A stretch of 64,000 nucleotides of DNA from Patescibacteria group bacterium (GCA_038063415.1 JBBTVD010000006.1:137948-201947), one strand, 5' to 3'. Positions 708-55,099 are shown, counted from the stretch's first letter. The notes: generated by a model not told the origin, from the sequence alone. Program-made: numbers and translations.

Positions 708-1193
708 CTATTTGGTATGCTCAGCTAGACTTAAGGCTCTCTTCTCTTCATCAGAGAGTTCATGTTCGATACCCTTACCTTTTACTACCCTCTTTGCGTA
801 CCATCGCATCCCTGTTCGAGCGTAGAGCGCAGTAATGACGACACCGGTATCGTACGAATCTGCCAGTGTCAGAATGAAACTATGATCACCTCCAGTATCT
901 TTAAAAGGGTTAAATCGAAGGAGGCCTATCTTCTGAATGTGCAATCGCTCTTCTTTTTCTATTGTAGCACAGCGACTCATCAGTTCAGCAATGGCTTGTT
1001 GTGACTTAGTATTTTCCTTGATAATTTTGGTCAGCACGGTATCAAGTGTATTGCGGCTTACTCCTCCGGTAAAGAGCATATATCGAGCATGTAATCGACG
1101 GAAAGAAAACGTCAACCATCCAACCCAAACAAGCAAAATAAGTAATAGTATAAAAATAGGCGTATCCATATGAATCAAACTGTCTCCTGCCAT
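708..1193 (-). CDS. DUF4446 family protein
   Basis: 161-aa ORF with an N-terminal TM segment and an LLRFNPFKDTGGDHSFILTLAD block resembling the DUF4446 family. Confidence 0.5.
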   Translation of the reverse strand: MAGDSLIHMDTPIFILLLILLVWVGWLTFSFRRLHARYMLFTGGVSRNTLDTVLTKIIKENTKSQQAIAELMSRCATIEKEERLHIQKIGLLRFNPFKDTGGDHSFILTLADSYDTGVVITALYARTGMRWYAKRVVKGKGIEHELSDEEKRALSLAEHTK

Positions 1194-1242
1194 ATTAGCC
1201 TCTTGACAGCCTGAGTGTCAATAGTGTAATCTAGGCTCATTC

Positions 1243-1539
1243 ATGCCTAAAAAGAGAAAAACTCGCCAGCAAAAGATGCAAAGCGTTGATCGGCAAAAAA
1301 GTCCCGTTGCTCAAGCCAAACAGGATCTTTCTCCTGAGCCATATACTTACTCTCTCCCTCAAACAACGGTATCGGCAATTGGTCTAAAGACACCTTCTGT
1401 TGCCCAAAAGACTGCATCGATAACCGTTAGTGAATATGCATATCTTGGAGGTGACCTCCGCAAAACACTCCTTCTGACATTAGCAATTGTTATCTGTCAG
1501 CTATTACTGTTTTTCTTTTTACCAGGCGTTTATAAATAA
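1243..1539 (+). CDS. hypothetical protein with C-terminal hydrophobic segment
   Basis: 98-aa ORF with a Lys/Gln-rich N-terminus and a C-terminal TM-like stretch. No recognisable family. Confidence 0.3.
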   Translation: MPKKRKTRQQKMQSVDRQKSPVAQAKQDLSPEPYTYSLPQTTVSAIGLKTPSVAQKTASITVSEYAYLGGDLRKTLLLTLAIVICQLLLFFFLPGVYK

Positions 1540-39503: not shown

Positions 39504-39881
39504 TTATAAAAATAATAACGCTAGTGTCAAAATAGGAAAGGCAAGAAAGCTGACAAAGATAATTGCTTCAAAAGTAAGGAGCATCAAGAACAGAACAACT
39601 TCAATTGGAATAAGCATTGTTTTGAGGGTAATTCCCATGGCTCTTGAGAAACCTACGAGGCCTTCACGATATTCATTTTTCAAAGGTTTGAAAAACGTTT
39701 TAATAAAGAGCGGTAAAGAAAATATTCGTAAAAACGCATCATTCACTGACCGCAAAAAGACAAACAATCCAACAGGAGCTTCTACATACCAAAAATGTAA
39801 AAAATGAAAAGGAAGAAAAGTATATTGTTTCATAGGGCAGCGTGTTGTTCTTAGTATAAAAAGTATGGGTGCAAAATACAA
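39504..39881 (-). CDS. small polytopic membrane protein (125 aa, ~4 TM)
   Basis: Hydrophobic. Its stop overlaps the start of the downstream Clp gene by 4 nt (ATGA), consistent with operon membership. Confidence 0.4.
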   Translation of the reverse strand: MYFAPILFILRTTRCPMKQYTFLPFHFLHFWYVEAPVGLFVFLRSVNDAFLRIFSLPLFIKTFFKPLKNEYREGLVGFSRAMGITLKTMLIPIEVVLFLMLLTFEAIIFVSFLAFPILTLALLFL

Positions 39882-41631: not shown

Positions 41632-44600
41632 CTATTGCTGCGGCTGTAATGCTGCTCCGTTGATGTCAACGGGAGTAACAGCAGGAGCTGCTTGCTGTGG
41701 TTGTTGAAATGGAGTAGCAACCGGTGGTTGGAACACTGGCGTTGTTGGCTGCTCTGGCATGGCTGGCATCTGTGGGACTGTCCCAGATGCCGCCAATGAG
41801 TCAACCGTCACAACAGTAGGAATTTGAATAATTGGGTTCACCATTGCTGGTTGCTGAGCAATTTGCTCAAAAGGTGCTGGGTTTACCGAAGCGGGAGCAA
41901 TCGGGGCAGCAACCGCTGGAGCCTCTGTCCTCCCAAATGTACCTGCAACTGCATCAAGGATGAGCAACCCTACCATATCATTCTGTATTTTTGCTTGCTC
42001 CAATTGTTGTTTAAGCTGTGTAAGCTCTTCATTGGTCGTAGCCTCGGTTATAGCAAGCACCATAGCCGCAAGCTTATTGCTATTTTCGGCTTCATGGGAT
42101 ATCTTTGCCTGCAAGTCCGTGTATTGTGTTCTTTCTGCCTCTGATGCTGCTGCTATCGGATTAATCAACAGGTTCAGTGTTTGGCGAAGATCATTGACAT
42201 CAGCATTCTTTAGTTCCTCCGCAACTGCTGTAAGGATTTCTATTGCCAATGGATCTCCGTTTTTCTTTGCCAATTCTAGTTTGTTATATACATCTTGAAT
42301 ATCTGCATCTGAAGTAATATCAGTAATGGCCAATATTGCAGCTGCAAGTTGATGATTTTGTTTGCTGGCTTCCGTAATTTTCTCATTAAGCTGGCTAAAC
42401 TTCGCTTTATTCTCAGGAGAGGCCAGATAGAGTGGATTACTTAGTTGCCTAAAGATTTTTTTGTATTGAGAACCAGGATTGGCTGTTTTTGACTGAGCTG
42501 AGTCCGCTACCATTGCATTGACAGCTGCAAGCACATCTGTCGCGAATTCACTCCCCTGATTTTTTGCTTGCTCCAAATCATGCATCAGTGTCTCAATTAT
42601 CTGTGGTGGAGTGGCATCATTTACCGCCATGATGCTCACTGCAAGTTGATTTTGCTGTTGCTGTTCGGCAAGCAGTCGCTCATGAAGTGCAACAAACTTT
42701 TCTTTTTCTACCGGAGAGGTAACGGTAGCTGGATTAATAATCTGTAACAACACTTTCTTAAAGGTTGTCGCTGTTTGGATTTGCTTTGCAACACTATTTG
42801 CCAAATCCAACAATTCAATCGCAAAAGCATCCCCTTTCTTCTTTGCATCTTCAAGATCTTTACGAATCTTTTGAATCTCAGTGGTTGAAGAGGTTGAATT
42901 TACTGACAAAATTGCTGTAGCTGTCCCGTTGCCTCCAGTACTTGCTTGAACACATTTATCATGGAGTGCACTAAATTTCATTTTTTCTTCTGCATCCGTA
43001 ATACTTTCAGGCTGGGCAACTTTTTGAAGGACTTCTTTGAATTGTTCATCAGTTAGTACAATTGCCGTCTCTGAAGAAGTATCTTTGACGAAAACAAACT
43101 CGTTGGTATCAGTACTGTAATCGATAACGATCGTATCTCCAACAACAAATTTCTTCCCAATAATAGCAAGCGCAATTGGATTCTCTATGGCAGTTTGAAT
43201 CAGACGGCGAAGTGGACGTGCCCCATAGACAGGATCATAGCCATCCTTAGCAAGCTGTGCCACTGCTTTTTCGGTAATCTGGAGAGTATACCCTTCTTCT
43301 TTTAAAAGCTTTGCTGTCTTTGCAATTTCGAGACGGACAATGCCTGCCATATGCTCTGGTCGAAGTGGCTTAAAGATAACTACCTCATCAAAACGATTCA
43401 GCACCTCAGGACGAAGGAACTTCGTCAGCTCTTCTTTTACGATTTTTTGTAGATCCGTAAACTGTTTGTTGAGCTGTTCTGCTGTTGGCTTTGCTTGTGC
43501 ATCAATTGCACTGAGTTGTTGCTGAATGAGTGAACTTCCAATGTTGGAAGTACAAATCACAATGGTATTTTTGAAGGAAATAGTATTCCCTTTGTTATCT
43601 GTCAATCGACCATCCTCAAGAAGTTGCAAGAGGATATTGAAGACATCAGGATGTGCTTTTTCGATTTCGTCCATAAGCACAATTGAATAGGGTTTCTTTC
43701 GGACAGCTTCAGTCAGTACCCCACCTTCTTCATAACCGACATATCCGGGAGGAGCACCAATAAGTTTGGCGACTTCGTGTTTTTCCATGTACTCAGACAT
43801 ATCAAGCCGAGCCATCGCATCATCACGTCCAAAAAGTAATTCAGCTAAGGTCTTGGCAAGTTCTGTTTTACCAACACCAGTAGGTCCAAGGAAGATAAAC
43901 GAAGCAATTGGCCGCTTACCAGAAGCAAGACCAATTCGACCACGTCTGACAGCTTCAGAGACGGCACTTACCGCTTCTTCTTGATCAATCAATCGTTGGT
44001 GAATACGGTCCTCAAGTTTGAGCAATTTTTCACTTTCATCTTCAGTAAGTTTGGTAATCGGGATACCTGTCCATGCACTCACCACTTTTTCGATATCTGA
44101 CTTTTTGATTTGATTATCACCACGTTTCCCTCCATCCATTTGCAATTTGACTTCAGAAGAGGCTTCATCAAGTAAATCGACCGCTTTGTCAGGGAGATAT
44201 CGCTCACCGATATATTTCTTAGAAAGCTTGACACATTCCTTAAGCGCATCGTCAGGGATGGTTACATGATGGAATTTCTCATATTTAGGACGGATAACTT
44301 TGAGCATCTCAACGGCATTTTCTTCACTTGGTTCTTCAGCAGTTACTGGCTGGAAGCGTCGCTCAAAAGCTTTATCTTTTTCAAAATTTTTACGATACTC
44401 AGTCGTCGTGGTCGCTCCAATTAATTGAAAATGTCCACGAGCCAGATGTGGCTTGATGATATTGGCAGCACTCATACCTTCGTCACCACCAGCACCCATC
44501 AAGGTATGAATTTCATCAATGAAGAGAACGATTTTATTATTTGCACCAAGCACTTCGTTAATTACTCCTCGAAGTCTTTCTTCAAACTCTCCCCGGTGAC

Positions 44601-45621
44601 TTGCGCCAGCAACAAGGGAAGCTACATCAAGTTGAAAAATTCGTTTGTCTTGCAAATCTTTTGGTATTTTCCCATTTACAATCATTTGAGCGAGCCCTTC
44701 AACAATAGCAGTCTTTCCAACACCCGTCTCACCAATAATGATTGGGTTATTTTTGGTTCTTCGAAGAAGGATGTGGACAATACGGTCGACTTCCTTTTCG
44801 CGTCCAGCAACAGGATCAAGCCGTCCGGCTCGAGCCTCTTCTGTCAAATCAAGACCATATTTTTCAAGAATGGTCTTGTGACTATAGTTTGCTTTTGGAT
44901 TTTTTGATAGCTTATCAACAATAGCTTCTTTTTTGAGCCCCTTCTTTTGCAAATAAGCTCCTGTCGTATAGGTGGGAGAAGAAAGCACAATCAAAAGATC
45001 TTCAGGAGAAATAAAATTTGACCCACGCATCTTTGCATCGCGATATGCCTGATCAAAAACTTCTTGAGCAGTTTTGCTCAGAACTGGTTGTTCTTTAAAC
45101 GTACCCATTTTTTCGGCAGCTTGTACTTCTTTTGATAATGCCCCCCCATCTTGTTGAAAATCAGCTAGTAACTGGTAAATCTGCTGATCGTAAAGCAATC
45201 CAATAAGCAATTGATCAGGCTCTATAAACTGTTGTTTGATCCTTTTTGTCTCTTCCTGCGCATGTGTCAGTACTTGTGAAGTACGTGGATCTAAGTGACT
45301 AAGCGCTGAGACATCCGACGTAACGGGAGTCCCAGTATCCACATTGGAGGTTGAGACAGGAGTAGTTACTGCCGCAGGATCAGTTGTAGGTACTATGGTA
45401 GGATCGCTCGTTACAGTAGGATCAGTAGCGGACGGAGATGTGGGATCGCTTGCACTTGTTGAGGACGAAACAACTGGGGTTTGCGCCTGTGAAGGTGATG
45501 CCGTAGGTGCAGCAGAAGGCGGTGCTACTGGCTGTTGAGATTGATCCACTGGAGCTGCCGCTGTTGAATCAGCAGATGGATCATCTTTCCCTTTTTTTTG
45601 ATTGAAAATTCCTCCAAACAT
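41632..45621 (-). CDS. giant (1329 aa) Clp/Hsp100-family double-AAA+ ATPase with N-terminal Pro/Ser/Thr-rich region, Clp_N domain, and C-terminal ~370-aa array of ~72-aa repeats plus Pro/Gln-rich tail
   Basis: NBD1 ([18 protein letters not shown]...LFIDEIHTL), a short ClpA/C-type linker, and NBD2 ([17 protein letters not shown]...[14 protein letters not shown]...GRLTDNKG...CTSNIGS...GARPLRR). The C-terminal repeats read [LV]LQ.IxNPAxVTSPxEKEKFxxLHxxL...LAxxIxAxxDxT...IxxLxxxLExAKxxGxxxA. The same repeat family occurs in the adjacent membrane protein. Confidence 0.8.
41930..43040 (-). repeat. array of about five ~72-aa protein repeats (approximate DNA span) within the AAA+ ATPase gene
   Basis: Seen in the translation. 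Example unit: [78 protein letters not shown]. Confidence 0.6.
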
Positions 45622-45673
45622 AGGCAGTACTAGTACTATTAAATACTAATTTCAGAAAAAGGGCAAGGCCTTT

Positions 45674-48600
45674 TTACTCTTCACTTTTCATTTCTTTTTG
45701 CTCTTTTGTGCCTTGCTGAGCAGGAACGCTTATTTTTTGTTCTTCCTCGTTGGTCATTGCTTTGAGTACTGTTTCTGCTGCTTCACGTTTTGTTTGTAAA
45801 TAAGCAATAATTTCATTGAAAGAGAAGCCGCCCAGCAACAGGAATGGTAGAATATCGGTTACTTTTTTCATCCCTTCTTCTTTCTTTTCTTTCTCGGGTG
45901 AAACCAGTAAGTTAACCGTATCAGTCATTTGCTGCATATCGGCTTTTATCCAATCCATTCTTCCCTTATCATCTTCTGTATAACCTTGAGGAACAAGCAG
46001 TTTTTGATAGTTTTCTTCCCACATCTTCTTTACTTCTGTGTATTCTTCATTATTAACTTGTTGTGTTGTGTTTACCGAGGTGAGAAGGGCACTCCCCATA
46101 CTACCAAGAACTTTTGCCGCGATAGGATCATTATTTTTCTTTGCTTCTTGCAGTTGATCAAAAAGCTTTTGTATGTCTTGAGCAGGAGCCGTTTCTTTTA
46201 CCACCAATACTTGGGTGGCCGTAGCATTTCCATCAGTACTTGCCTTTGTTAGTTCATCGTGTAATTTGGTAAAGTATGCTTTGTCGGCATCAGACGAAAG
46301 TTTTTCGGGATGATTGATATGATCCAACACCTTTCGCAACTCTTTAAGAGTAACTACTTGATCAAGGACATTTACCACCTGTGTAGCAATTGGACTTCCT
46401 TGTTGTTTCTCAGAAGCAAGTTTTCCTTTTAATGTTTCAATATCGGCAACGGAGGTCTGATCACTCACTGCAAGAACCTGTGTCGCAAGTTCATTCTTCG
46501 ACTCGCTTTCTTTGACAAGGAATTCGTGTAGCCGTGTATAGAAGTCTCTCTCCGCCTCAACAGGAACTTTTGTAGGATCAGCAATTTGTACGAGTACGTT
46601 TTTTAGTTCTGCGAGTGTTAGTGCAAGCATTTCAACTTCTCCACTCAGATTCTGAGCTGCAGAAAGGATCGCACCAGCGGTGATATCTCCTTTTTGCCCA
46701 GCAAGCACCAAGCGTTCTCGTAATGCTTCATATTTTTCTCGTTCAGGACTCGCTGTTAGTTGCATTGGATTTGCAATATGGGTAAGTATCTCCTTTGCTT
46801 TAGCAACTCCCTCTTGCTGCGTTTTATCTCGTGAGAGTAGACGAGTTTCATACCGCGCAATATCACGCATTTTCGGGATCTTTAAATCAACGATGTTCAT
46901 AATGTCATTTGAAATAGTAGGAGTAACAACGGTTGTTTTGCTTATACCACTTGCTAACAAGCTCTCATCACCTTCCTCGGTACCGCTTGCAACTGAAGCT
47001 GAGTTACTTGCTGAGGGCTCATCCATAGTAGCAGCCATGGTTGCTTGATTTTCAGCTTTCCTCGTCGTGACGGTAACTTTCTCTTCCTCATCTTGCACAA
47101 GTGCAACGGATATCTCTTTGGCAGCATCTTGTTTTGCCTTCAGATATCCGACAACTTCTGTCTGAGAAAATCCTCCGACAAGAAGAAAAGGAAGAATGTC
47201 AGAGACTTCTTGCATTCCTTGATTAACGACATCAGGATCAGCAGCGGTAAGCATACCGACGATTTCATCTATCTTTGCGATATCATCACGAATCCATTCA
47301 CTTCTATTACCAGCCATGCCTTCTGGTACTTCAAGGTTTTGGTAATTCTCTTTCCACATATCCTTAATGGCCTTGTAATCCTGTTGGCTAACGTTCTGCA
47401 CTCGATTAACTGAGGGGAGAGAGACTCGGGCAGCTGTTTCTCCAACCTTAGCAAGCTCGGTCGCAATAGGCTCTCCCTTCTCTTTTGCCTGAAGAATTTT
47501 CTCTTGAAGTTTCTCAATATCTGCAGTTGAAGTTTTTTCTGTCATACCAAGAATTGATCCTGCAAGCTCATTTCCTTCTTTACTTGCTTTAGACAATGAA
47601 TCTTTAAGTTTAGTAAGTCTCTCTTTTTCAACAGGAGAGACTGCCACTGCTGGATTAGCAATTTGCTGAAGGACACTACGCACTTGCTCGGTTGATTGCA
47701 CTTGTTTGACTGACGAATCAATTGTTGACAAAACAGAGGATGCAACACTGTTCTCTTTGGCTTGCATAATCTGATTTTGAATCTTCTCAATCTCTACTGT
47801 TGAGGTTTTATCGGTAACCGAAAGGATAGAGGTTGCAAGCTGATTATTATTCTCTTTACTTTCCTTAGAAAGGGTATCATGAAGCTTAGTCATTTTTTCC
47901 CGATCAGCAACATTGGTAATAGAGGCTGGATTGGCAATTTGTTGTAGGACTGTTTGCATTTGAGCTGTACTTACTTGTTGCTTCTGTCCCCCTGAAATCG
48001 TATTCATAACACTCACCGCAACCTCCTGCTGTTTTGCCTGCATCAATGTATCTCGGATTTTTTCTACCTCTTTTGCCGAAGTGTTTTCATTTACGGACAA
48101 AATGGACGAAGCAAGGGCATTGTTATTCTCCTTACTTTCCTTAGAAAGCATTTGATTAAGCTTTGTCATCCGCTCTCGATCTACAATATTATTTACTGAA
48201 GCTGGATTTGCAATCTGTTGTAGCACATTTTTAATTTGACTATTGGTTGCCATTGATTGCGACATTGTACTTGCAGCATTCAAGATAGATGCTGCCATAT
48301 TATTCCCTTGCTGAGTCTCTTTACGTAATCGATCACGGAGCTGATTATATTGTTGTCTATCTGTTGTTGCTGTCACTGCCATAGGATTGGCAATACGTTC
48401 AAGTTTTTCTCGTACTTGTGTAACTTCTTGACGTTGACTTGCATCCTTTGATAAGAGTGCCGTTTCATATTTAGCAATATCACGCATAGAAGGAAGAGAA
48501 AGATTTGCTACATTTAATATTTGTGCATTTGCTTGCGAAATAGGCATGACACGAGGCTGGCTTGCAGACATTGTCGCAGGGGTAGTTTCATAGACAATCT

Positions 48601-49951
48601 CTTTTGCTTCACCAGCTGGCTGCAAGCCCTTTGGAATATTAAATTTCTTTGCAAAAGGGATACTCATGGCAATTCCGGCATCACCAGGAGGAGTTGGTGC
48701 AGGAGGCTGCCCACCAGGAGTGATAGGAGTTCTATTTGCCGTTGCTAGATTAACAAGGGTTTTCATGACGGCACTATCACCAGGAGCGAAATTAGCAGCA
48801 TAATCAAGAAATATCTGCAAGAGGATCCATGGCAATAAAATAACCACCCATAACATAATAAGCGCAACCACATAGAGCGCGAATGTTTCAGTTAGGTTCA
48901 CACTGTTCGTTGGCGTTACCAACTGCTGTGGACCACCAAGAAGGATATTGACCGCTGTTGGATAAATGATTTGATCAGCCTGATTGATACCTGGATTATT
49001 AAAGATGAGCGGGACACCGCCGCCTCCCTGTCCAGCAGCCCCTGCATTATCACTTTGCCATCGCCACATAGAGACGAGTCCTTTTAAGAATATAGCAAAC
49101 AGTGGTGCATAGAGTAACCATCGGAAGAATTCACCAATCCAGATTTTCCCTGTGTTCCGAGTAGGATAATACAAAAGAAGCAATGGGAAAATTGGTGAAA
49201 CAATAATAAAGAACCAAAGAATAATCTTACGCATGAGTAAAATTCCAACCATGACAAAATAGGTCAGAGCAGTAAGTTTTGTTAATAAAAGAGAGATAAA
49301 AGCGGATTCAGCATTGTAATCGCCTAAGAGCCTAAGGCCAACAAAATTTCGATAATCCCATCCCACATACAATAAATCTGCTTGAGAGATACAGTTGGGT
49401 GGACAAGAGAGGTCGCTTTGGTCATCTGATTTTAGGAAGAAGCCTTGGATAAGATCAGTAAACTGATAAAAGAACTGTAAAATAGAATAGGAAAAGACAA
49501 TAAGCAAAATAACAGCCACAAAACGAGGAATGAACCGCATAATAGTGAGACTCCGCCCCCGAGTAATGATGATGACAAGCGCTGTAGCAAGAATGACAAA
49601 AAAGAGTAAAGGCACAACAATACTAATAACAATGAGTGACCAGAATTGAGCAAGTGGATTATCACTATTATCACAAACACGTGCCTGGTTTTCTGTAGGA
49701 GCTTGCGTTTCAGTCACACAAACCCAGTTATAGTTTTGTAGGGTCCAATCAAGCATGTTTCCAGCTCTCGCAGCATTTTTTCCAATGAAGGTTACCTCTG
49801 GATCAACGACCCAATAAGCCCCTGTTGGCTGAGGATTTACCTCCTCATCGACAGCATAAGCAGGAGAAGAAAAGGATAAAGCTCCAATAAAAAGGACAGC
49901 TATAACTATAAACGGAACAAAAAAACGAAAATTGGGCAGTAATTTTTTCAT
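45674..49951 (-). CDS. giant (1425 aa) signal-peptide + ~6-TM membrane protein (VirB6/TrbL-like topology suspected) with a ~1000-aa C-terminal domain built from the same ~72-aa repeats, arranged as a two-fold tandem super-repeat
   Basis: Signal peptide MKKLLPNFRFFVPFIVIAVLFIGALSFSSPAYA, Cys-containing extracytoplasmic segments, six hydrophobic helices and a Gly-rich loop. The repeats read VLQQIANPASxxNxxDREKMTKLHDTLSKESKENNNxLAxSILSVxxKTSxxEIEKIxxxIMQAKE. Two super-repeats each end in ...MWxENYQxLxVPxG...DILPFLLxGGFSxxExxxYL. Confidence 0.75.
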   Translation of the reverse strand: MKKLLPNFRFFVPFIVIAVLFIGALSFSSPAYAVDEEVNPQPTGAYWVVDPEVTFIGKNAARAGNMLDWTLQNYNWVCVTETQAPTENQARVCDNSDNPLAQFWSLIVISIVVPLLFFVILATALVIIITRGRSLTIMRFIPRFVAVILLIVFSYSILQFFYQFTDLIQGFFLKSDDQSDLSCPPNCISQADLLYVGWDYRNFVGLRLLGDYNAESAFISLLLTKLTALTYFVMVGILLMRKIILWFFIIVSPIFPLLLLYYPTRNTGKIWIGEFFRWLLYAPLFAIFLKGLVSMWRWQSDNAGAAGQGGGGVPLIFNNPGINQADQIIYPTAVNILLGGPQQLVTPTNSVNLTETFALYVVALIMLWVVILLPWILLQIFLDYAANFAPGDSAVMKTLVNLATANRTPITPGGQPPAPTPPGDAGIAMSIPFAKKFNIPKGLQPAGEAKEIVYETTPATMSASQPRVMPISQANAQILNVANLSLPSMRDIAKYETALLSKDASQRQEVTQVREKLERIANPMAVTATTDRQQYNQLRDRLRKETQQGNNMAASILNAASTMSQSMATNSQIKNVLQQIANPASVNNIVDRERMTKLNQMLSKESKENNNALASSILSVNENTSAKEVEKIRDTLMQAKQQEVAVSVMNTISGGQKQQVSTAQMQTVLQQIANPASITNVADREKMTKLHDTLSKESKENNNQLATSILSVTDKTSTVEIEKIQNQIMQAKENSVASSVLSTIDSSVKQVQSTEQVRSVLQQIANPAVAVSPVEKERLTKLKDSLSKASKEGNELAGSILGMTEKTSTADIEKLQEKILQAKEKGEPIATELAKVGETAARVSLPSVNRVQNVSQQDYKAIKDMWKENYQNLEVPEGMAGNRSEWIRDDIAKIDEIVGMLTAADPDVVNQGMQEVSDILPFLLVGGFSQTEVVGYLKAKQDAAKEISVALVQDEEEKVTVTTRKAENQATMAATMDEPSASNSASVASGTEEGDESLLASGISKTTVVTPTISNDIMNIVDLKIPKMRDIARYETRLLSRDKTQQEGVAKAKEILTHIANPMQLTASPEREKYEALRERLVLAGQKGDITAGAILSAAQNLSGEVEMLALTLAELKNVLVQIADPTKVPVEAERDFYTRLHEFLVKESESKNELATQVLAVSDQTSVADIETLKGKLASEKQQGSPIATQVVNVLDQVVTLKELRKVLDHINHPEKLSSDADKAYFTKLHDELTKASTDGNATATQVLVVKETAPAQDIQKLFDQLQEAKKNNDPIAAKVLGSMGSALLTSVNTTQQVNNEEYTEVKKMWEENYQKLLVPQGYTEDDKGRMDWIKADMQQMTDTVNLLVSPEKEKKEEGMKKVTDILPFLLLGGFSFNEIIAYLQTKREAAETVLKAMTNEEEQKISVPAQQGTKEQKEMKSEE
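45720..48540 (-). repeat. two-fold tandem internal duplication (~1.4 kb each, approximate) inside the giant membrane-protein gene, each copy containing four ~72-aa repeats plus a conserved terminal module
   Basis: Protein segments ~470-960 and ~965-1410 align (IAKYETALLSKD / IARYETRLLSRD starts; DILPFLLVGGFS / DILPFLLLGGFS ends). Confidence 0.55.
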
Positions 49952-53092: not shown

Positions 53093-54271
53093 TTATTGAA
53101 ACATAACCGCCAAAAAAATAATGATCCCGGGAATAATAAATACCCATGGACTTATCTCAGGATAATAGGGTAGAGGGATCGAGGTTGGCGTAGGAGAAGG
53201 TCTAACGGTTCCTCCTCCCCCTCCAGTACCTGCTCCCCAGGTACTATAATCGACTCCTCCGCCAAGTCCATTCGCAGGGCTATTATTTCCAAAGAGTTCA
53301 AGGTATTTTGCTGACGATTGAGGAGCATCAACAGATCCTGCAGCTGGATAAATACCTGAGCCGACATTACCTGGCTCTATAGAGATTGGCGCATTATAGT
53401 AGGCTTCATAAGCAAGAATATCACGATTTTCCATAAATGTTTCAAACATCTTCTCTATATAAAATGGATTATCTCCTCCACCATCAGCACTGCCAACAGC
53501 AACTCCCCATTCTGCGACAGAGAAGAGCTTCCCATGTTCACGGGCAAAATTAATAACATAACATAATCCATTATTGGTATTACACTGGTTATCCCATGCA
53601 GCTTGATCATGACTGGGAGGATAATGATCATAGGAATCAATACCGATGATATCTACATACTCATCTCCAGGGTAGGCATCAAAAGGATTTCCACTTGCTG
53701 GGAAGGGGGAACCGTGTGCATTAAATGTCCAATCAAGAAGCACGTTGGGAGCTGTGGATCTAATTGCCTTTGCCACGTTATTCCAGCAAGTTTTAAAATT
53801 CGTTGGATCAGCATCACTGTGCCAATACATAAAATCTCCATTAAATTCCCAACCAATTCTGATAATAGTACTTGGGGAATTTCGACCAATGCTATCAAGA
53901 TAGCTGCCCGCTTCTTTCCAGTAGTTATCATAAGCGCCACTTGCACACGCAGCATTATTGCCCTGCCCTTGTGGATACATAGCTACGGAGAGTACAAGGA
54001 TACCGTCATAGCTTTTATAATTGAGTCCATCAAAAATATTGGTTGGTTTAGTAAGCGATCCCCATCCAGCATCACGCACATTAAATGAAGCAACAATAAC
54101 ATCCGTGGGATTGCCTCGCCAAGTCCCAAAATCAAGATGGGGCTGGAGTTCATTTGCTGTATGAACACCCGATGCCCACGGTAAATCCGAATTTGGAGCA
54201 GCTTCTATAACTGTCGTTGGGAAAAAAGCAAAGAAAGTAACAAGTAGTAATACAAAAAAGAAGTGTTTCAT
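53093..54271 (-). CDS. secreted glycoside hydrolase, GH26-like (beta-mannanase-type clan GH-A) with Gly-rich linker and C-terminal TM anchor
   Basis: Signal peptide. IIRIGWEFNGDFMYWH is the acid/base motif of GH26 WEFNG type, and SVAEWGVA holds the nucleophile Glu. The C-terminus is GGGGTVRPSPTPTS followed by a TM. Confidence 0.55.
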   Translation of the reverse strand: MKHFFFVLLLVTFFAFFPTTVIEAAPNSDLPWASGVHTANELQPHLDFGTWRGNPTDVIVASFNVRDAGWGSLTKPTNIFDGLNYKSYDGILVLSVAMYPQGQGNNAACASGAYDNYWKEAGSYLDSIGRNSPSTIIRIGWEFNGDFMYWHSDADPTNFKTCWNNVAKAIRSTAPNVLLDWTFNAHGSPFPASGNPFDAYPGDEYVDIIGIDSYDHYPPSHDQAAWDNQCNTNNGLCYVINFAREHGKLFSVAEWGVAVGSADGGGDNPFYIEKMFETFMENRDILAYEAYYNAPISIEPGNVGSGIYPAAGSVDAPQSSAKYLELFGNNSPANGLGGGVDYSTWGAGTGGGGGTVRPSPTPTSIPLPYYPEISPWVFIIPGIIIFLAVMFQ

Positions 54272-54349
54272 ATATCTACTTCTAGACTAAAGGATTTATA
54301 CTGCCCTGTCAAATAAAAATTGAACATAGCATTCCCTTGTTCATCAGTA

Positions 54350-55099
54350 CTATTGCAGACTTTGTGGATTATTAGCAGGTGGATATGTTTGTGTCTGAGA
54401 TTGTCCCCCCTGTTGTTGAATAGTATTATTTACCGCTGGAACTTCAGCGTTTGTTTGCCCTTGCCCTATTATGATTGTTGTACCAGTACTAGATTTTAAG
54501 ACTGATTGTGCCACTCCTCGTGCAGTCACAAGGGTGGTAGGTAACAAGTTAAATTGAGCTTGACTCCCAATTTGCCCCTTTGCGGTAAAAGTAATTGTTG
54601 CAACAGAACCAGTTCCTTTTAATGTAGGTCTATTTGGTGTTATACCGACAGCGTACGTTACTTTACCCTCTTGTGCGTTAACTTTGTTGATTAATACTAC
54701 GGGATTTTCGAATAACGCACCTGGTGTCAATTGCACATTGCTAACAAGTGTAGGATCATACGAAAGCTCCAATTGTACTGCAGTAACATCATTATCCGAA
54801 GTGTCTATTGCAACATCAATTTTCCCTTGTTGTCCTGGTGCAACAGCAAGTGGATTTGGCGAAAGAGAAAGTACCGAATGCGCAGGCACCGACGGTGCTG
54901 GGGTCCCTTGAGCTATTGGGGCAGAAGATGGAACGATTTGAGATTGCTGTTCTTGTTGTTGCCTGTTGGCGTTAAAAGCTACAATAAAAAGAATAATCGT
55001 TACTAATACCAATCCAGAGATAAGGGCAAGCGTTTTCTTCGGCATAATTTTATGATAGACATCTCTTTCGGGTTTTGCAACTAGTACTTTTGATAACAA
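54350..55099 (-). CDS. membrane-anchored cohesin-like domain protein
   Basis: N-terminal signal anchor, then a ~140-aa beta-rich domain (KIDVAIDTSDNDVTAVQLELSYDPTLV...GSVATITFTAKGQ) resembling type-I cohesin modules, then a Gln/Thr-rich tail. Confidence 0.4.
   Translation of the reverse strand: MLSKVLVAKPERDVYHKIMPKKTLALISGLVLVTIILFIVAFNANRQQQEQQSQIVPSSAPIAQGTPAPSVPAHSVLSLSPNPLAVAPGQQGKIDVAIDTSDNDVTAVQLELSYDPTLVSNVQLTPGALFENPVVLINKVNAQEGKVTYAVGITPNRPTLKGTGSVATITFTAKGQIGSQAQFNLLPTTLVTARGVAQSVLKSSTGTTIIIGQGQTNAEVPAVNNTIQQQGGQSQTQTYPPANNPQSLQ

Follow-up and report, generated by a model that had tools for sequence, protein, structure and literature searches.

The stretch analysed here is a window of 64,000 nucleotides from a metagenome-assembled genome listed in GenBank as "Patescibacteria group bacterium" (GCA_038063415.1, JBBTVD010000006.1:137948-201947). 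Our subject is a pair of adjacent genes within this window, which encode a large VirB6-like membrane protein and a large ClpB-like AAA+ ATPase, and in particular a repeat that the C-terminal regions of both proteins hold in common. We find that the repeat is a lineage-restricted, previously undescribed all-alpha domain with a unit of ~90 amino acids, and that it is essentially confined to the VirB6-like and ClpB-like families, in Levybacteria (class Microgenomatia, Patescibacteria or candidate phyla radiation, CPR). The two genes follow a gene for a VirB2-like pilin candidate at very short distances, with 8 nt between the pilin and VirB6-like genes and 52 nt between the VirB6-like and ATPase genes, and a small hydrophobic protein and a second Clp-like ATPase (Clp2) are encoded further downstream (Table 1).

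An earlier note on this DNA, made from the sequence alone, had proposed that the repeat is shared by the two proteins, with about five units in the ATPase and about eight in the membrane protein. Using a profile hidden Markov model (HMM) of the ~91-amino-acid unit, we recover the consensus and the coordinates given in that note, but the counts require correction to four units in the ATPase and, in the membrane protein, to five full units and two half units (the latter matching the first ~50-60 profile positions), which together cover positions 46058-48403. That the repeat is genuinely shared is confirmed by an HMM built from the five full membrane-protein units only, which retrieves all four ATPase units (E 6e-22 to 3e-16) and scores 216.8 bits against the whole ATPase, the best of 500 shuffles of the ATPase C-terminus reaching 8.4 bits. 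Furthermore, the first ATPase unit, which lay outside the seed of the first HMM, was still matched at 2e-24. Identity between ATPase and membrane-protein units is 21-38%, similar to that between units of different modules within the membrane protein, and all comparisons across and within both proteins fall at 19-38%, with the exception of units in the first module of the membrane protein (41-62%). A search with Tandem Repeats Finder returned no array at the DNA level, which argues that the repeat array is old and not an artefact of assembly, and on the same ground a recent duplication was rejected.

Prediction of the fold, which the earlier note had recommended, was carried out with AlphaFold2 for the second of the two repeat-bearing super-modules of the membrane protein, and yielded a confident all-alpha model (predicted local distance difference test, pLDDT, 82.8; predicted template modelling score, pTM, 0.76). 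Each unit contains ~5 helices in this model, and given that one uninterrupted helix forms the end of each unit and the start of its successor, the array should be rod-like. Generic helical repeats (TPR, HEAT/ARM, Sel1, ankyrin) are likewise built of tandem all-alpha units, and an elongated protein-binding scaffold is the probable common property, yet the repeat matches none of these, nor any other Pfam repeat family or solved repeat-protein fold. Pfam and NCBIfam leave the repeat regions of both proteins unmatched, and a profile search of all PDB sequences with the repeat gave nothing credible.

The distribution of the repeat is exceptionally narrow. An exhaustive HMMER search, in which a profile of 34 diverse units was compared with 1.84 billion cluster representatives at E up to 1e-3, recovered only 137 representatives: 88 with an N-terminal VirB6-like domain, 28 fragments with the tail domain only, 2 with a Clp core and 19 unclassified, the last being mostly short fragments that resemble ATPase units 3 and 4. 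The earlier note had pointed out that co-occurrence of the repeat in neighbouring proteins would be uninformative if it proved to be a generic repeat of many unrelated proteins; as the 137 matches belong essentially all to two families, this is not what we find. The repeat was also absent from other open reading frames (ORFs) within ~10 kb of 58 loci, and from those anywhere in the window. Conversely, a search with the full-length membrane protein returned 385 homologues, and all 120 of the database homologues examined carry the repeat, as do the membrane proteins of all but three of the genomic loci (locus L054, which has the tail domain only, and two contig-truncated copies, which have nothing). 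One long match lies outside both families (P0229, 1115 amino acids, six weak stretches, E 7.8e-5); the first repeat HMM did not support it, its N-terminus resembles neither family, and the probable explanation is a chance resemblance in a helical protein of another kind.

In the membrane protein the units are arranged in a higher order that the earlier note had overlooked. The C-terminal ~940 amino acids comprise two super-modules, each of which opens with a half unit, continues with 2-3 full units and closes with a conserved tail domain of ~125 amino acids that carries the motif ILPFLL.GGFS. Homologues obey the same grammar, with 0-5 full units between the half unit and the tail, repeated over 1-5 super-modules, and range from 660 to 2790 amino acids in length. 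The shortest complete forms possess the VirB6 domain followed by a half unit and a tail, or by a tail alone.

Long hydrophobic helices were modelled by AlphaFold2 at residues 99-130, 137-172, 214-251, 265-302 and 354-387, in agreement with a hydropathy scan and with the five or more such helices of VirB6 proteins, and ~1000 amino acids of hydrophilic all-alpha sequence follow residue 390, as in extended VirB6 proteins. By fold comparison the membrane domain resembles solved VirB6, this being the only informative route to its identity. Given this fold and a VirB2-like pilin gene directly upstream, the protein is best described as an extended VirB6, too diverged for sequence models to recognise. 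An orthologue of the pilin gene occupies the same place in 54 loci, and 20 of the 22 pilin orthologues scanned match Pfam PF18895 (T4SS_pilin; best E 3e-7), the copy in the window being a weak one (T4SS_pilin E 0.5, DUF6112 E 0.006). Homologues of VirB6 have been found to be scarce in Microgenomatia, "suggesting extreme sequence divergence" (PMC12102498), and the VirB6-like family described here is a candidate for the missing VirB6 of this class. A pilin-like domain also occurs (E 1e-12 to 1e-16) in proteins of ~400-470 amino acids at loci L004, L006, L007, L010, L018, L022, L024, L031 and L043, encoded ~5-7 kb upstream of the VirB6-like gene on the opposite strand; these are possible pilin-domain fusion paralogues, and the window contains none.

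Extended VirB6 proteins (F-plasmid TraG, the paralogues of Rickettsiales and the 700-900-amino-acid Gram-positive MPF-FA homologues) likewise combine a polytopic VirB6 fold with a hydrophilic C-terminus and are encoded beside a VirB2-like pilin. The present family differs from them in that its C-terminus is made of a modular ~90-amino-acid helical repeat and a tail domain, in that it is unmatched by the Pfam TrbL/VirB6 models, and in that its gene is chromosomal, lies among housekeeping genes and not by VirB4, and is almost always followed by genes for Clp-family ATPases.

The ATPase is, on the evidence of its sequence, a motor of the ClpB lineage that lacks both DnaK coupling and a protease partner. 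Its closest solved relatives in PDB are ClpC and ClpB (~E 1e-205), yet it falls below the NCBIfam cut-offs for ClpB (TIGR03346, 868.5 bits against 1232.1), ClpA (708.6 against 993.15) and ClpV (TIGR03345, 658.8 against 884.95), and no genes of a type VI secretion system (T6SS) were found near the locus. Positions ~415-526 of the ClpB profile are unmatched, the sequence passing straight to the D1-D2 linker, and so the M-domain is absent and coupling to DnaK is not expected. The Walker A and B motifs are intact in both the D1 and D2 rings and the D2 pore loop is canonical, with its tyrosine, while histidine stands in place of the D1 pore-loop tyrosine in 39 of 41 orthologues (residues ~340-352 of the window protein, DNA 44700-44740). 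No IGF, IGL or VGF tripeptide for docking on ClpP follows TSNIGS in the window protein or in five orthologues, and a ClpA- or ClpC-like partnership with a protease was rejected for this reason. The combination of intact Walker motifs and D2 tyrosine with the absence of both the M-domain and the IGF/IGL loop fits a stand-alone threading motor; reading it as such, and not as a DnaK-dependent disaggregase or a partner of ClpP, leans on the established architecture of Hsp100 proteins. The description of the two proteins in the earlier note as an unfoldase and a channel-like membrane partner thus appears reasonable for a ClpB-like ATPase without an M-domain and a protein with the VirB6 fold. With ClpB and Hsp104 the ATPase shares two AAA+ rings, Walker motifs, a Clp_N domain, the D2 tyrosine, a ClpB-like D2 sequence and the lack of a ClpP loop; it differs from them in its missing M-domain, its D1 histidine, its long low-complexity N- and C-terminal extensions and its C-terminal repeats, as well as in its sub-threshold ClpB score. 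At four loci (L017, L032, L035, L049) the ATPase is present as two adjoining ORFs, of ~530-590 and 555-615 amino acids, which appear to represent either D1 and D2 as separate genes or a frameshift.

A scan of GTDB at one genome per species yielded 56 loci, whose informative titles are mostly Levybacteria or Levyibacteriota. Many records with the operon (L006-L009, L011, L012 and others) bear the title "uncultured Gammaproteobacteria bacterium", and some read "Sulfotelmatobacter" or "Limnocylindrales"; these are evidently placeholder or wrong names. Across Levybacteria the order of pilin, VirB6-like protein, ClpB-like ATPase, small membrane protein and membrane-anchored degenerate Clp is kept, and in 43 of the 49 informative loci no more than 500 nt lie between the VirB6-like gene and the start of the ATPase gene downstream. 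Among the remainder, four loci have unrelated genes downstream, a further one (L054) has its Clp gene ~1.4 kb downstream, and in another (L048) the VirB6-like gene is split by a frameshift.

The Clp2-like gene is present in 28 loci. Its product begins with a hairpin of two hydrophobic helices, a hydrophobic N-terminus being retained in 28 of 28 orthologues; the Walker motifs of its D1 are degenerate (GESGVGKEH; YIPEF), and its D2 is active and has a pore loop without an aromatic residue (GSPPGKGSERG). To judge from these motifs, Clp2 looks like a non-threading, membrane-anchored pseudo-Clp with a regulatory or scaffolding function. The GenBank model of Clp2 (MEK7571036.1, 750 amino acids) starts 53 codons after the start of the longest ORF, probably too far downstream, as the conserved hydrophobic N-terminus would be lost. 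The small hydrophobic protein is always encoded just before Clp2 (a 109-amino-acid gene occupies the equivalent place in L002), and no family match was found for it. In the window, a gene for a subtilase that has a fervidolysin-like prodomain interrupts the row between the two Clp genes; it is missing from that position in L002 and many other loci, and probably lies outside the system.

Table 1 Coordinates of the genes, domains and repeat units considered in the window (nucleotides counted from the first letter of the stretch; residues counted within each protein)
Feature	Residues	Nucleotides	Strand	Basis
VirB2-like pilin candidate, 98 aa		49959-50255	minus	ORF; two hydrophobic helices
VirB6-like membrane protein, 1425 aa		45674-49951	minus	ORF; GenBank MEK7571040.1 "hypothetical protein"
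VirB6-like protein: signal peptide, small ectodomain, polytopic VirB6-fold domain	1-390	48782-49951	minus	
VirB6-like protein: super-module 1	~484-1010	46922-48502	minus	HMM; half unit 517-562, full units 575-664, 667-756, 759-848, tail from 849
VirB6-like protein: super-module 2	1016-1425	45677-46906	minus	HMM; half unit 1055-1115, full units 1118-1206, 1207-1298, tail 1299-1425
VirB6-like protein: full units (5)	575-664, 667-756, 759-848, 1118-1206, 1207-1298		minus	HMM
VirB6-like protein: half units (2)	517-562, 1055-1115		minus	HMM
ClpB-like AAA+ ATPase, 1329 aa		41632-45621	minus	ORF; GenBank MEK7571039.1 "AAA family ATPase"
ClpB-like ATPase: Ser/Thr/Pro-rich low-complexity N-terminal extension	1-110	45292-45621	minus	Sequence; start of core match
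ClpB-like ATPase: double AAA+ core (Clp_N, D1, D2, D2-small)	~111-850	43072-45291	minus	Pfam/NCBIfam
ClpB-like ATPase: full repeat units (4)	863-950, 956-1046, 1055-1145, 1147-1237	41911-43035	minus	HMM
ClpB-like ATPase: Pro/Gln/Ala-rich tail, probably disordered	1238-1329	41635-41910	minus	Sequence
S8 subtilase, 563 aa		39897-41588	minus	Pfam Peptidase_S8 E 2e-52; N-terminal hydrophobic anchor
Small hydrophobic protein, ~109-125 aa (window ORF 125 aa)		39504-39881	minus	Directly upstream of Clp2 gene
Second Clp-like ATPase (Clp2), 803 aa		37090-39501	minus	Pfam matches and sequence
TIR-domain protein, 214 aa		36248-36892	plus	Pfam TIR_2 E 1.7e-12

Housekeeping genes flank the operon on both sides (NusA, IF-2, PNPase, S15, a release factor (RF), RecA, RecX and folate enzymes), and a mobile-element context was rejected in view of these neighbours. 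A reading as a relative of a type VII secretion system (T7SS), prompted by the co-occurrence of an AAA+ ATPase, a subtilisin and a membrane protein, was likewise rejected, given the VirB6 fold and the loci at which the subtilase is missing. The TIR gene, encoded on the other strand, separates the operon from nusA and has a weak PADLOC match to ThsB (E 7e-6), and no partner defence gene was recognised for it. Among the operon proteins themselves, PADLOC models gave only partial matches of the two Clp proteins to AAA+ D2 domains (PDC-M37B, DolB), and none for the membrane protein, the pilin or the small protein; as these matches are to generic AAA+ sequence, the defence-system reading that the adjoining TIR gene invites was rejected. 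Elsewhere in the window (53093-55099, minus strand) a cohesin-domain protein (E 8e-11) adjoins a weak GH26-like protein (E 1.6e-7), and such cell-surface carbohydrate-related genes are unusual for a reduced genome.

The evolutionary history of the repeat differs between the two families. Among ATPases, units (2-5 per protein) are present in all 22 complete copies whose partner VirB6-like domain is at least ~58-60% identical to that of the window. Of 77 ATPase units, 76 find their best match in the ATPase of another genome, as a rule in the equivalent position (median 109 bits), and the ATPase carries full units only, never a half unit or a tail domain. The units are inserted between D2-small and the disordered tail. 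In ATPases without repeats a tail of 80-190 amino acids rich in Pro, Gln and Ser comes directly after D2, and the tails of L019, L020, L021, L027, L047 and L051 have in common the motif QFATPDFNPPFL, QFATPDF(N/S)PPFL, which could be a linear docking motif that replaces the repeats in the repeat-less clade. From these comparisons the simplest history is that the repeat arose and expanded in the VirB6-like extension, where it is ancestral, was copied once as an array into the ATPase of one clade and has since been inherited vertically under constraint. The common origin by domain shuffling put forward in the earlier note is well supported by this picture, in which nearly all membrane homologues bear the repeat, ATPases bear it in one clade, and the units are positional orthologues.

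The distribution of charge over 108 homologues of the membrane protein fits a topology with the N-terminus outside and the C-terminus inside, the loop at residues 130-143 having a net charge of +4.1, that at 166-216 a net charge of -2.3, and both flanks of the segment at 243-262 being positive. All four cysteines fall in predicted external segments, and there are none in the 940-amino-acid repeat region. The VirB6 of A. tumefaciens reportedly has the same orientation in reporter fusions, with an external N-terminus, five transmembrane segments and an internal C-terminus. In the extended VirB6 TraG of the F plasmid, the C-terminal domain is periplasmic. We assign the membrane-protein repeats to the cytoplasmic side with uncertainty.

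The shared repeat suggests that the VirB6-like protein and the ATPase are physically coupled. In our view the best explanation, which we advance tentatively and with slightly less than even confidence, is that cytoplasmic repeats tether a ClpB-like unfoldase to a VirB6-like assembly derived from a type IV secretion system (T4SS). The repeats would serve as protein-protein interaction modules on the cytoplasmic side, and the six C-terminal repeat arms of an ATPase hexamer would, to go by Hsp100 structures, emerge beside the substrate-exit face of D2, given that the extension follows D2-small. These arms may attach directly to the VirB6-like oligomer through its repeat or tail modules. The ClpB-like protein is the only soluble member of the operon, the others being membrane proteins, and so needs a tether; once bound, it would belong to an assembly that includes the VirB2-like pilin, the small membrane protein and the membrane-anchored degenerate Clp. 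A motor held in this way could unfold, feed or extract proteins at the assembly, and the geometry of the exit face would suit the passing of an unfolded chain to a membrane partner, if unfoldase and channel are indeed coupled. Protein substrates of T4SSs need unfolding, according to work cited in PMC12857230.

Several observations weigh against this explanation. The co-variation between the two sets of repeats that the earlier note had proposed as a check did not materialise: unit numbers in the ATPase and the membrane protein are uncorrelated (rho 0.15, p 0.49, n=22), and the membrane-protein units of the same genome are no closer to ATPase units (median 45 bits) than are membrane-protein units from any genome (59 bits), an absence of within-genome excess that gives no indication of concerted evolution. 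Below ~58-60% identity in the VirB6 domain, none of 20 complete ATPases has repeats, yet the operon is unchanged, and consequently the repeats cannot be the sole or the ancestral coupling device. The last two hydrophobic helices have charge-neutral surroundings, which makes the assignment of an internal C-terminus weak, and in the solved R388 T4SS only alpha1 and alpha2 of VirB6 are in the membrane, the rest being periplasmic (PMC9259494); if that arrangement holds here, the repeat region could be extracellular and away from the ATPase. The VirB6 assignment itself draws on fold and gene context only: at E up to 10 no Pfam family, TrbL/VirB6 included, matched residues 1-480, no VirB6 was retrieved when PDB sequences were searched with a profile of the membrane domain, and the R388 stalk chains that Foldseek ranked first were below significance. 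Moreover, no VirB4 or other T4SS ATPase was found, nor any VirD4, VirB3 or VirB8, in the 64-kb window or in loci L001 and L002. A docking role for the repeats, the mechanism that we prefer, is plausible and is offered as a proposal.

The lack of copy-number correlation and of within-genome co-variation is more readily accommodated if the repeats of both proteins bind a shared third partner (for instance a secretion substrate, the pilin, the small protein, Clp2, or an envelope or nucleic-acid ligand) or act as a rigid spacer, their co-occurrence then reflecting a common client. The units diverge to the same degree whether taken from one protein or from both, and the ATPase is without the half unit or the tail that frame every module of the membrane protein. 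Hsp100 accessory domains, moreover, usually bind substrates or adaptors, as in the binding of the ClpV N-domain to VipB and of Clp_N to its adaptors. However, no candidate partner has a matching distribution, the repeat being absent from the other ORFs near the 58 loci, and the other operon members are alike in clades with and without ATPase repeats. We regard this alternative as doubtful. A further alternative places the repeats outside the cell, in a pentameric stalk or fibre, longer or shorter according to how many super-modules (1-5) it has, and served by a dedicated ClpB-like chaperone; the ATPase units would recognise new modules by heterotypic helix packing, and keep them unfolded for export or remove failures. 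The neutral charge near the last hydrophobic helix, the periplasmic C-terminal domain of F TraG and the two membrane helices of R388 VirB6 are all compatible with such a stalk, as are the modelled hydrophobic helices, which at 32-38 residues are longer than a bilayer needs, and the wide variation in module number among orthologues, which is common for surface fibres. Yet members of a single domain family would then be required to function on the two sides of the membrane alike, an unknown route would be needed to export 1000-2000 hydrophilic amino acids after the last hydrophobic helix, half of the family would have no recognition repeats on its ATPase, and the positive-inside signal in the earlier loops agrees with the topology that reporter fusions reportedly gave for A. 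tumefaciens VirB6. We consider this quite unlikely.

It could also be argued that the repeat in the ATPase has no function linked to the membrane protein, and that an expansion-prone helical spacer was copied by illegitimate recombination and tolerated at a disordered C-terminus. The insertion site does correspond to the disordered tail of repeat-less orthologues, the number of ATPase units varies (2-5), and the repeat-less clade keeps its operon. However, retention of the array in 22 of 22 ATPases of the clade, with units conserved by position (median 109 bits), implies purifying selection in very small genomes, and a neutral domain hop is accordingly very unlikely. Returning to the tethering of the unfoldase, a more ambitious version can be envisaged in which Levybacteria possess a T4SS-derived envelope machine with an Hsp100 motor instead of, or beside, VirB4 and VirD4: the hexamer would dock homotypically on the cytoplasmic arms of a VirB6 pentamer and thread protein into a VirB6/pilin conduit with the assistance of the pseudo-Clp, and the VirB6-like protein would be the VirB6 that Microgenomatia seem to lack. 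Taken as a whole, we think this unlikely.

The kinds of component at this locus (extended VirB6, VirB2-like pilin and Hsp100 ATPases) are already known, and there is precedent for an Hsp100 protein dedicated to a secretion machine through an accessory domain in ClpV (TssH) of the T6SS and in Francisella ClpB acting on the sheath. In ClpV it is an N-domain that recruits the motor to the VipB sheath, whereas here the domain in question sits at the C-terminus and has its homologue in the membrane partner. Human CLPB/SKD3, with its ankyrin repeats, and ClpG/ClpK are likewise Hsp100 motors with a gained domain that alters targeting or oligomerisation; their added domains are N-terminal and of known families, in contrast to the C-terminal domain described here, which is of a new family and common to a neighbouring gene. 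The docking of ClpA and ClpX on ClpP provides, together with ClpV and its sheath, the nearest functional precedent, neither being homologous in the relevant parts. A limited literature search found no description of a conserved VirB6-Hsp100 operon or of such a T4SS partnership, nor of an accessory domain that an Hsp100 motor shares by homology with its presumed membrane partner.

Extended VirB6 proteins typically have C-terminal hydrophilic domains, whose role is unknown and an acknowledged open question (PMC12857230), and at the present locus conserved gene order and a private shared domain tie a VirB6 candidate to Hsp100 ATPases. The proposed interaction lends itself to testing with two fragments that are recombinant, soluble and all-helical. 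Should the coupling prove real, a soluble unfoldase would have come to a secretion channel by taking over a domain of the channel protein, and this could explain protein transfer across the envelope of ultra-small episymbiotic bacteria.

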